A program made the position numbers. 6,707 nucleotides of DNA from a virus (taxonomy: Duplodnaviria; Heunggongvirae; Uroviricota; Caudoviricetes): the IMG/VR virus record IMGVR_UViG_2703718818_000009; one strand, written 5' to 3'. Below, piece after piece: positions 1-3,000 of the stretch; the stretch's first letter is position 1, and the number at the start of each line of letters is the position of its first letter.

Positions 1-3000
1 TGGACGGATGCGGAAAACAATGATGTGCCGGTGACAGCAGAAGAGCTTATTGCGCTGAGTGAAGCGGCAGAGCAGGCGATGTTCACTAAAGGGATGGAAA
101 TCCACGTCCGGCAGCGCACCATGAAGAAGGACCTGGAATCGCTGAGCAGTGCGGATGAGATCCTGGCATACAGGGTTGGCTGGGCACAGGAATAACAGAC
201 AAAAAGATGGGGGACCATCACCTCCCCCATGAACTGAGTCAATTATACACTTGTGAAGTATTTACTATGCGAATAAATACTGTCACGGAAAGTGCAGGCC
301 TGGATGTGATGGAAATCATGTTTCCGGCGCATCCTGTTGATATGGATAATTTTTCAGATTTCCGGAAGTGAGAGTTTTTGGTGTTTCCATACCAGCCACA
401 GTTGATGTGTGTTGTGGCGCTTGGCAGTGCGATTAAAGGAGCAGAGGGAATAAAAAACGGGGGCATGACCAACCCCCGGTACAAGGAAGGAGTAACTACA
501 ATGGAAAAATTAATGAAGACCTTTAGTGCTACGTTATATGGCGGATAAAGACTGCCACAGGGAAGTTTGCAGAAACAGTGATGCCGATCGTGTTTCTGAC
601 GCTCTTCTCTGATAAGAGTAATTTTTCAGATTTCTGGAAATCTGTATTCTGCACAGGCGCAATTGTATGCCGCCTTTAAAACTTCAATTCAGTGACTCAC
701 CTGCCATTCAAATTTTCGGATACCAGACAACCATGCCTTATATCGATATAACAACTATGCGCGGGATGATGCCAGGCGTTATTGCATCTATGCTGCCAGA
801 TCATTCTGCTGTACTGGCAGAAAACTGTCATTTTCGCTATGGAGTGATCACGCCTGAACACCAGATGTCAGAGGCTGAGAAAACATTCGCGATTAAGCCG
901 AAAACCATTTTTCATTACCGTGACGATTTCTGGTTTGCATGGACGGATGTGGTGGATGTGATCCGCAGTCCGGTCGCTCAGGACTCCCACGGGCGTATTT
1001 ACTACACTGACGGGCGTTTTCCTAAAGTGACGGATGCGACCATTGCCACAAAAGGGGACGGGAATCACCCGACATCATCGTATCGTCTGGGGATCCCCGC
1101 GCCGACGACAGCACCTGTCTGTACTGTTCAGCAGGGCGGTGATGTTTCTGACGATAACCCGAATGATGACGAAACCCGGTTTTATACGGAAACCTTTGTC
1201 TCAGATTATGGTGAAGAAGGTCCGCCAGGTCCGGCGTCTCTGGAGGTAACACTCCGTACTCCGGGGACTGCGGTACAGCTGACGCTGTCTCCGGTGCCAT
1301 TGCAGAATGCCAGTATTAAACGCCGCCGGATTTATCGCTCTGCATCAGGTGGAGGAGAAGCGGATTTTTTACTTGTGGCTGAACTGGATGCATCCGTGCT
1401 CAGTTACACGGACAAAATACCGGGGAAAAACCTTGGACCTTCTCTGGCGACATGGGATTACCTGCCGCCGCCAGAGAATATGACAGGCCTTTGCCTGATG
1501 GCTAATGGTATTGCCGCCGGGTTTGCCGGTAATGAAGTGATGTTTTCGGAAGCGTATCTGCCGTATGCATGGCCGGAAGTGAATCGTCACACGACGGCAG
1601 AAGATATTGTGGCTATCTGTCCGCTGGGAACGTCACTGGTGGTGGCGACAAAGGGGGAGCCTTATCTGTTCAGTGGTGTATCGCCTTCCACAATTTCTGG
1701 CTCCAGAATTCCTTCCATGCAGGCATGCCTGAGCCGAAGAAGTATGGTGGCGATGGAGGGATTCGTACTCTATGCTGGGACAAACGGTCTGGTATCTGTT
1801 GATGTAAACGGTAATACAGCACTGGCAACGGAAAAGATTATTTCACCTGAACAGTGGCAGAGTCAGTTTAACCCGGCGTCCATTGTGGCTTATTCCTGGC
1901 GTGGTGAGTACATTGCCTGTTACACGAAACCGGATGGTAAGCAGGATGTGTTTGTATTCAGTCCGGTGAACATGGATATCCGTTATCTCAGTACACCGTT
2001 TGACTGCGCATGGGTTGATCTCGCGAAAGATATGATGCGCGTGGTGACAGGAGACAAAATGTCAGTGCTTGCCGGGGGCTCTCTGCCCTCCACGATAAGG
2101 TGGCATTCAAAAATTTTTTCATTACCTGAAAGAACCTCTTTTTCCTGTATCAGGGTGAAATCTCCGGCGCCTGAGCGGGTGGGGATCACCATTATGGCTG
2201 ATGATGTTCCTGTGATTCATTTTGCGCCGGGTACGTTTAAGGGAAGTGTGGTGAGACTTCCGGCAGCAACCGGGCAAAACTGGCAGGTGATGGTATCCGG
2301 ATTCGGGCAGGTGGAACGAATAACCCTGAGTACATCGATGTCGGAGATGCCGGTATGACCAGAAAACCGTGGCGTGCGGGGAAGGATTTATCCACAGTTG
2401 TGGAGAACATGGAAATTGGCACCGGGCAGCGTGGTGACGGACGCCACGCATTTGTGACCCGTGAGGAACTGGTTGGTCTTAAACTCGCCCGGCGTCGAAC
2501 ATCGGGTGGTGCCTCATATGCACTGAATCCGGGTATTGAGATTGACAGTACTTTAATGACTGTTGATTTTCCCACAAAACCGCTGAATTTTAAGGCGACA
2601 GGAGGATTTGGCTCGGTTCTTCTTGAATGGGATATGCCTAATTATCGCGGACATTCACTGACTGAAATCTGGCGGGGTACGGAGGATGACCTTGCTGATG
2701 CAGTGCTGGTTGCCACGACGCCGGGGCAGGTTTACGGCGATCCGGTTGACCCTGGCTGGTCGGGATTTTACTGGATACGTTTTGTTAACGCGGCAGGAGT
2801 GAAAGGTCCATGGAATGCTGAAAAAGGCACTCAGGCACAAACACAGATCGGCGTGAAGGCCATCATTGACCAGATCCGCGATGAGGCTGCAAAGTCGCCG
2901 GTTGTGTCCGAGCTGCGTAAAGAAATAAAAAACGCGCAGGGGCAGGCTGTAAAGGATGCTGCAATTAAGACAACCGAAGTTGTGGGGACTCTCAGGGAAG

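Follow-up and report, generated by a model that had tools for sequence, protein, structure and literature searches.

Lambdoid phages are mosaics whose modules are exchanged by recombination at short shared boundary sequences. PasB, an 83-nt Hfq-dependent prophage small RNA (sRNA) of enteropathogenic Escherichia coli E2348/69 that was validated by northern blotting (Pearl Mizrahi et al. 2021, PMC8550237), is encoded on the antisense strand of the gpI-gpJ gap, and only 6 nt separate its terminator from the stop codon of gpI (PMC8550237, supplementary file 8); the distribution of the Pas sRNAs is treated in a preprint (Zhu et al. 2026, bioRxiv 10.64898/2026.05.13.724894). Chromosomal DNA of the ykgJ region, about 81-84% identical to E. 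coli K-12, has been described in the ends of prophages of Shiga toxin-producing E. coli (STEC) under the name attB-in-PP_2 (Nakamura et al. 2021, PMC8112680), where it represents the ykgJ/ecpE intergenic side, upstream of ykgJ, and acts as an attachment site (PMC8112680). In the present work we analyzed a 471-bp gap (positions 196-666) inside the tail operon of a tailed phage, IMG/VR record IMGVR_UViG_2703718818_000009 (Caudoviricetes); the whole stretch of DNA analyzed, 6,707 nt long, is referred to below as the window. The gap separates the 3' end of a rightward gene for a DUF4376 domain protein from the gene of a 563-aa virion protein, and it holds two tandem repeated units, each with a G/C hairpin at its left end. 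We conclude that the gap, which lies at a recombination joint, is probably what remains of a convergent accessory gene of the ykgJ family: the gene was lost, and its 3' flank is present in duplicate as an orphan.

The evidence for a lost gene comes from related prophages. DNA related to the window locus was found in 173 of 5426 complete E. coli genomes, within prophages in every case. In the commonest arrangement (L003, L015 and other loci), the DUF4376 gene is followed by the first hairpin and then, some 125 nt further on, by a 109-aa YkgJ-family gene (PF03692) on the opposite strand. Positions 1-369 of the window align with L003 at 91% identity, and the alignment extends 16 nt into the annotated YkgJ coding sequence (CDS). 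Positions 354-369 thus correspond to the last five codons of the leftward gene (L-P-E-I-stop), its stop codon (TGA) in the single-unit relatives being the trinucleotide tca at 354-356. A YkgJ-family CDS was annotated under the match in 13 of the 25 E. coli records of a spread sample. In the relatives, either such a CDS or DinI-like genes and ykgJ fragments face the DUF4376 gene, the stop codon falls inside a repeated box described below, and the distance from the ykgJ stop to the hairpins is about 125-150 nt. An earlier reading of this DNA, made without database searches (the sequence-only reading), had stated that no leftward protein gene exists for the hairpins to terminate. This is correct for the window itself, where the plus strand carries all sizeable genes, but not for the relatives, in which a YkgJ-family CDS converges on the DUF4376 gene.

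Different degrees of gene loss can be seen among the prophages. The tandem arrangement of both units was found in 23 genomes; in two loci of this kind (L002 and L010), an intact ykgJ adjoins the second unit, and its stop codon corresponds to positions 626-628 of the window. In other prophages and IMG/VR contigs, approximately 95, 55, 45 or 10 nt of ykgJ are left after the box, and next to these remnants lie DinI-like genes or fragments with the same leftward orientation; several of the remnants are called partial YkgJ-family pseudogenes by the Prokaryotic Genome Annotation Pipeline. In contigs of the L020 type, an in-frame fusion between a DinI-like open reading frame (ORF) and the end of ykgJ was considered and refuted by translation. 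The window retains a ykgJ-family 3' end on the minus strand at 626-670, comprising the stop codon and about 14 codons before it (ending in YNCACAEYRFPEI and a stop, compared to ACNRARAKYGLPEI and a stop in the intact gene). Of the 45 nt of this relic, 35-36 agree with intact ykgJ genes of prophages; for the part past the box the count is 22 of 30 nt, a number reached by none of 5000 shuffles, and the continuous BLAST alignment with L010 extends to window position 671. By these alignments, the window is assigned to the class of ~45-nt ykgJ remnants. With about 15 codons left and no intact CxxCxxCC ORF, the sequence is a relic and not a member of the YkgJ family. A tblastn search with the ykgJ protein returned in the gap only K-LSLPEI at 357-377, too short for significance, and the relic is therefore demonstrated at the DNA level.

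The gap contains this 3' flank twice. The 21-mer TAATTTTTCAGATTTCCGGAA at 347-367 recurs at 619-639 with one mismatch, as the sequence-only reading had noted, and forms the core of a 30-nt repeat (338-367 and 610-639, 87% identity) that we refer to as the box. The homology of the two units, also noted there, extends over about 107 nt at about 73% identity; positions 261-367 can be aligned to 533-639 with gaps, and identity between 306-367 and 578-639 reaches 77.8%. The body and box of unit 1 occupy 261-369 on the minus strand, and those of the paralogous unit 2 occupy 533-641 on the same strand, the unit profile giving nhmmer matches at 262-369 and 534-640, respectively. In the scanned loci, unit-like matches were limited to the two window units, the copies in L001 and a weak match of the box in P13374. 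Unit 2 was detected in 23 of the 5426 genomes, at a median of one place per genome, and the inter-unit spacer (370-457), which always accompanies units 1 and 2, was likewise detected in 23 genomes, invariably in the same context. A local alignment of 370-457 to the 3' end of a DUF4376-like gene was no better than shuffles (p = 0.09), and we rejected the idea that the spacer is derived from a second such gene.

Comparison with the chromosome indicates how the unit and the gene came together. The prophage ykgJ is 81% identical to K-12 ykgJ up to four codons before the gene end, where the homology ends; in single-unit prophages this boundary falls within about 3 nt of position 369/370, the joint between unit 1 and the spacer in the window. 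The unit itself has no counterpart at the K-12 ykgJ locus. Hence the unit is phage-side DNA joined to a captured ykgJ-like gene. We rejected the idea that the unit is the attachment-site arm of a phage integrating at ykgJ, as the K-12 yagU-ykgJ flank has no homology to it; the unit-bearing prophages are found at several host loci (potB, yodB, yfhH and fieF). It was also not accepted as a dispersed repeat of the repetitive extragenic palindrome or miniature inverted-repeat element kind, which should occur in many contexts, as every inspected locus adjoins a DUF4376 gene or fragment in a prophage. Exact box patterns had no matches in 185,579 species-representative genomes, and a literature search for the hairpin and box sequences found none.

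The right-hand end of the gap marks a second kind of boundary. Near-identity to the P13374-type Shiga toxin (Stx) phages (Sepvirinae) sets in at 612-618, the left edge of box 2, and is maintained at 99% onward. The segment 612-666 on the plus strand comprises the crossover at the right-hand side of the tail-fibre cassette as well as the 5' leader of the virion-protein gene, including the near-palindrome CAGATTTCTGGAAATCTG. P13374-type phages carry a different distal part of the fibre and a gp38-like adhesin in place of the fibre and DUF4376 genes. Their equivalent gap of 167 nt consists of the box and ykgJ relic and has no hairpins; of the unit body, only the box and about 25 nt match there, and weakly (nhmmer E = 0.024). 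Because the identity to P13374-type phages starts only at 612-618 and the fibre genes differ, the region to ~611 is attributed to the right-hand part of a lambdoid host-range cassette. The ends of L005-type prophages diverge at about 624. Altogether, three independent joints lie at or in the box (369/370, 612-618 and about 624). We interpret the gap as the right-hand joint of a host-range cassette exchange, with a predicted crossover at the shared box.

Both hairpins pointed out by the sequence-only reading are present at the stated positions (207-230 and 458-478), and it is solely on the minus strand that they are followed by T-runs. Hairpin 1 has the sequence ATGGGGGA-CCATCACC-TCCCCCAT, an 8-bp G/C stem, and is followed on the minus strand by CTTTTTGT; the complete terminator 1 spans 198-230 on that strand, the hairpin beginning 12 nt past the DUF4376 stop codon. 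Hairpin 2, CGGGGG(C)-ATGACCA(A)-CCCCCG, is followed by TTTTTTATT, and terminator 2, identified by terminator scan and folding, spans 448-478, also on the minus strand. The two are similar, each having a G5/C5 stem and a minus-strand loop of GGTGAT or GGTCAT. The terminator scan called them on the minus strand only; in the whole window it found 14 terminator-like sites, compared to 5.5 +/- 2.5 in shuffles. As minus-strand RNA, the stems have energies of -16.7 (hairpin 1) and -14.0 kcal/mol (hairpin 2), and their ensemble probabilities within the whole unit are 0.97 and 0.96, respectively. Both thus show the G/C stem-loop and immediate U-run, on the transcribed strand, of an intrinsic terminator. 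A transcription unit upstream on the same strand is absent from the window, which has no leftward gene and no convincing leftward promoter, and is present in the relatives in the form of ykgJ or DinI-like genes. Because a leftward protein gene is located upstream of either hairpin there, we infer that they are the intrinsic terminators of that gene in the relatives, an assignment made from sequence and position.

The variation of the hairpins agrees with this assignment. The stem core of hairpin 2 is unchanged in eight relatives, where only loop indels and the closing pair vary (U.G to U-A in L035 and L041), and in L010 and L002 this hairpin sits 148 nt downstream of the intact ykgJ stop. In place of hairpin 1, L009 carries GGGGCTG-ATAAA-CAGCCCC, a hairpin of unrelated sequence (about 1315-1345), and the P-Eib phages have a remodelled 10-bp stem (L039, 620-650). 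In both cases the plus strand has its A-run ahead of the hairpin, which keeps the T-run on the minus strand. Since the T-run is kept even where the hairpin has been remodelled or replaced, these alleles suggest selection on leftward termination in prophages. As a separate observation, L002 (270-2885, E. coli Z1323MEC0001) has an IS66 element between the DUF4376 stop region and the unit; homology on the DUF4376 side ends at window position 211, inside hairpin 1, and restarts at 273, so that neither hairpin 1 nor the beginning of unit 1 is intact.

We propose the following history for the locus. In E. coli prophages of the lambdoid kind, the series of rightward late genes would end with the tail-fibre gene and its DUF4376 partner, on which a leftward accessory gene converges, here a YkgJ-family cysteine-cluster gene probably captured from chromosomal ykgJ-like DNA. 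With its stop codon in the conserved ~30-nt box, this gene would be transcribed through a 3' untranslated stretch of ~125-150 nt, and the transcript would end at the G/C hairpin and U-run next to the stop codon of the DUF4376 gene. In some prophages, the 3' flank (box, body and terminator) would have come to stand in tandem as two diverged copies. The cassette would then have recombined into a short-tailed Stx phage by a crossover at the box, which that phage also has upstream of its virion-protein gene; the leftward gene would have been lost save about 45 nt, and both terminators carried along. In the window, the hairpins would be intact but orphan and may at most stop stray antisense transcripts, and the rightward late transcript is expected to read through both of them, because neither has a T-run on the plus strand.

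The conservation of the gap across relatives bears on this history in both directions. The hairpins and the 21-mer, whose lack of conservation the sequence-only reading had named, together with a lack of minus-strand transcripts, as refuting its interpretation, turned out to be conserved in related prophages. Among 25 distinct relatives, mean pairwise identity is 95% over 196-235, equal to that of first and second codon positions, and only 70% over 236-299, versus 91% at third codon positions of the adjacent gene. The hypervariable spacer of unit 1 (231-299) includes the minus-strand TATAAT at 247-242, present as reported before and reading CATAAT in most alleles, and an allele-specific 10-bp hairpin. 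The segments 281-292 and 329-369 are nearly invariant; the sample is partly biased, as 19 loci were retrieved by an exact pattern inside the box. Several of these facts weigh against the interpretation of the gap as a pure relic. The segments 281-292 and 329-369 are more conserved than the synonymous sites of the neighbouring gene, which a relic does not explain. Unit 1 is whole in every ykgJ-deleted lineage sampled (with the same partial bias by pattern), and the hairpin is retained in the P-Eib phages despite a rightward next gene. In addition, the leftward termination on which the interpretation relies is deduced from the nucleotide sequence alone, and neither the origin of 370-457 nor the event that formed the tandem is accounted for.

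Four other explanations were weighed against the orphaned 3' flank. The sequence-only reading had proposed tandem sRNA or antisense genes; its tandem homologous units with leftward terminators are real and conserved, but the step from these to sRNA genes did not hold, given that the relatives supply a leftward protein gene that explains the terminators and that neither an Rfam match nor a convincing promoter was found. In its full form, this proposal states that each unit is, or holds, an independent leftward sRNA gene, with its own promoter or processed from a 3' untranslated region, that ends at the hairpin and base-pairs like PasB. PasB provides an architectural precedent, being antisense in a gap of a lambdoid tail operon (PMC8550237), and the U-tails of 5-6 U on both hairpins, the conserved islands within an otherwise hypervariable unit, the retention of YATAAT near hairpin 1 and the minus-strand RNA of window unit 1, which folds better than shuffles (z = -3.45), all fit such a gene. 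However, the low-energy fold of unit 1 depends on the allele-specific hairpin, unit 2 has z = -0.72, and minimum free energy (MFE) folds differ among alleles. RNAalifold gave for 12 alleles a covariation term of -0.24 kcal/mol with one of 24 pairs compensatory, and no conserved RNA structure beyond the terminators was found in this consensus fold. Neither PasB nor any probe for the other Pas sRNAs resembles the gap in sequence, and Rfam searches returned nothing, either at a permissive E-value on positions 1-1000 or at the gathering threshold on the window and two relatives. The minus strand of the gap has a single weak promoter-like site (286 to 257, 9/12), and such sites number five in the whole window, compared to 7.8 +/- 2.9 expected from shuffles. 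The TATAAT lies 12 nt from the hairpin and would give a transcript of about 36 nt, almost all of it terminator. Independent sRNA genes are thus unlikely, and a type I toxin-antitoxin pair was not recognized, no small ORF being conserved on either strand. A related proposal is that the whole unit (box, islands 281-292 and 329-353, and terminator) is a functional leftward RNA module, either a 3'-UTR-derived or independent sRNA travelling with tail-fibre cassettes or, in L003-type alleles, a terminator/antiterminator switch acting on antisense read-through into the tail-fibre genes. Such a module, if it exists, would account for the unit being kept whole and partly invariant after loss of the protein gene. 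In the L003-type allele (L003:3047-3213, minus strand), which is shared by L006, L023, L027 and L033, almost all of the terminator-1 region can pair with the complementary segment CGAAAAATGAGAGTTCCGTCACTTCC upstream of it, which looks like an antiterminator; in this 3' flank the MFE fold disrupts the terminator, the equilibrium stem probability is 0.34, and the duplex energy is -30.3 versus -20.5 +/- 3.3 in shuffles. The anti-terminator pairing is notable in this allele (p about 0.007), marginal in window unit 1 (p = 0.047) and absent in window unit 2 (p = 0.43), and we consider the module, too, a doubtful explanation.

The remaining two explanations concern the plus strand. The hairpins could, as the sequence-only reading gave as its alternative, act on the rightward late mRNA as 3' stability barriers or processing sites that set the level of the tail-fibre/DUF4376 message relative to that of the downstream virion protein. 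Hairpin 1 always accompanies the DUF4376 stop codon, even when the next gene is rightward (P-Eib), and it is stable as plus-strand RNA (-15.2 kcal/mol, z = -2.4). On the other hand, the plus-strand RNA of hairpin 2 is no better than shuffles (z = -0.88), P13374-type phages have an equivalent gap without such hairpins, and the conserved asymmetry (on the plus strand, an A-run ahead of the hairpin but no T-run behind it), kept even in replaced hairpins, matters only for leftward termination; this explanation therefore appears quite improbable. The last one is that the gap encodes small proteins on the plus strand, namely two short hypothetical ORFs annotated within it in GenBank record PQ600364 (207-371 and 405-548) or a 15-codon ORF at 501-548. 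The latter has a good Shine-Dalgarno sequence (AAGGAGT, 7 nt ahead of the ATG at 501) and lies inside a 56-aa ORF (378-548) that matches phrog_35908, a 55-aa profile of unknown function. Yet no small ORF in the gap is annotated by RefSeq or has a Pfam match, unit 1 has multiple indels among alleles, and in L005, L011 and L012 1-nt indels in the loop of hairpin 2 shift the frame of the 56-aa ORF. In these three loci, the ATG of the 15-codon ORF is also replaced by CTG and its Shine-Dalgarno sequence is lost, and we judge it to be non-coding. The phrog_35908 match reflects near-identical annotated ORFs only, in a family probably built on spurious ORF calls, and the two hypothetical ORFs of PQ600364 are probably spurious as well; that the gap encodes a protein is very improbable. 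In our assessment, the orphaned 3' flank of a ykgJ-family gene thus remains the probable explanation.

Positions 1-5467 of the window are 99.96% identical to Escherichia phage phiSTEC1589-Stx1c (PQ600364), and likewise to prophages of a few STEC genomes. The gap noted by the sequence-only reading is real, as the RefSeq annotation of matching records has the DUF4376 CDS alone under the match, and a scan for transfer and transfer-messenger RNA genes found none in it. The upstream gene (1-195, plus strand, stop codon TAA at 193-195) encodes the C-terminal part of a tail-fibre-assembly-like protein (Pfam PF14301, E = 6.5e-08), which in RefSeq relatives is annotated as a DUF4376 domain-containing protein; the full-length protein of L001 matches tail fibre and tail fibre assembly PHROGs. 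The downstream gene (667-2358, plus strand) encodes a 563-aa virion protein (phrog_511, E = 1.1e-277), the counterpart of the P13374 ORF67 'internal virion protein'. Its product aligns to phrog_511 from profile position 315 of 862 onward, its first 18 residues are unmatched, and its ATG at 667 falls within the ykgJ relic; the start of the gene may have been created by the recombination joint. We considered that the cassette had split the virion gene, leaving the N-terminal 314 profile positions in the upstream fibre gene, and rejected this, as the fibre proteins have no match to phrog_511.

Several side observations were made in the window. The near-perfect 18-nt palindrome CAGATTTCTGGAAATCTG (627-644) belongs to both box 2 and the ykgJ relic and precedes the ATG at 667 by 23 nt; it may form a weak hairpin in the leader or bind a protein, and in P13374-type Stx phages it is retained but carries a 1-nt insertion. 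Within the 563-aa ORF, positions 738-751 form another palindrome, TTATATCGATATAA, which is perfect over its 14 nt. Further downstream, a 244-aa ORF (4630-5364) bears the label 'virulence determinant Bor' in PQ600364 and belongs by Pfam to the Ail/Lom family of outer-membrane proteins (PF06316, E = 1.8e-32); a good terminator in the rightward direction comes after it, as is typical of accessory genes. Homology to PQ600364 stops at 5467, and 5468-6707 contains an IS66-family element with a transposase-family ORF of the HTH_Tnp_1 type (PF01527, 5538-5939, in the position of IS66 TnpA) and TnpB (PF05717, 5936-6283), inserted directly beyond the plus-strand terminator at 5388-5406.

The feature is of a well-known kind, a mosaic joint with a gene relic and predicted intrinsic terminators, and was merely unannotated here. 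On this interpretation, an odd 471-bp gap with seemingly orphan terminators in a tail operon needs no new RNA gene. The locus illustrates cleanly how a single short box can be the site of repeated recombination, and it provides an example of a virion gene whose start codon and leader are built from the antisense relic of a host-derived gene. It would also represent a cassette exchange between a lambdoid prophage and a short-tailed Stx phage that involves the host-range module of the tail fibre.

Compared to the described systems, the gap resembles PasB in having, on the minus strand of a tail operon gap, a terminator hairpin that abuts the stop codon of the upstream rightward gene. Unlike PasB, it has no sequence similarity to that RNA, follows a tail-fibre assembly gene instead of lying between gpI and gpJ, and is known from its sequence, whereas PasB has been validated by northern blot. 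The likeness to attB-in-PP_2 is that the prophage ykgJ, 81% identical to K-12 ykgJ, is probably of chromosomal origin; the difference is that the window holds the last ~45 nt of ykgJ and a phage-side 3' flank without a homolog at the K-12 locus. The hairpins are most similar to the intrinsic terminators of convergent accessory genes ('morons') at the lambdoid tail-fibre end, where a G/C stem-loop and U-run are found at the meeting point of a leftward gene and the last rightward late gene; in the relatives, such a gene, of the YkgJ family or DinI-like, is indeed encoded upstream of the hairpin and on its strand. In contrast to the usual moron terminators, those of the window are orphans whose leftward gene is gone, they are two in tandem, and the 3' untranslated stretch in the relatives is long (125-150 nt). 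Finally, as at other lambdoid mosaic joints, a box of ~30 nt is common to otherwise unrelated flanks, including those of P13374-type Stx phages, but unlike the usual lambdoid boundary sequences, the box shared here covers the region around the stop codon of a gene captured from the host.

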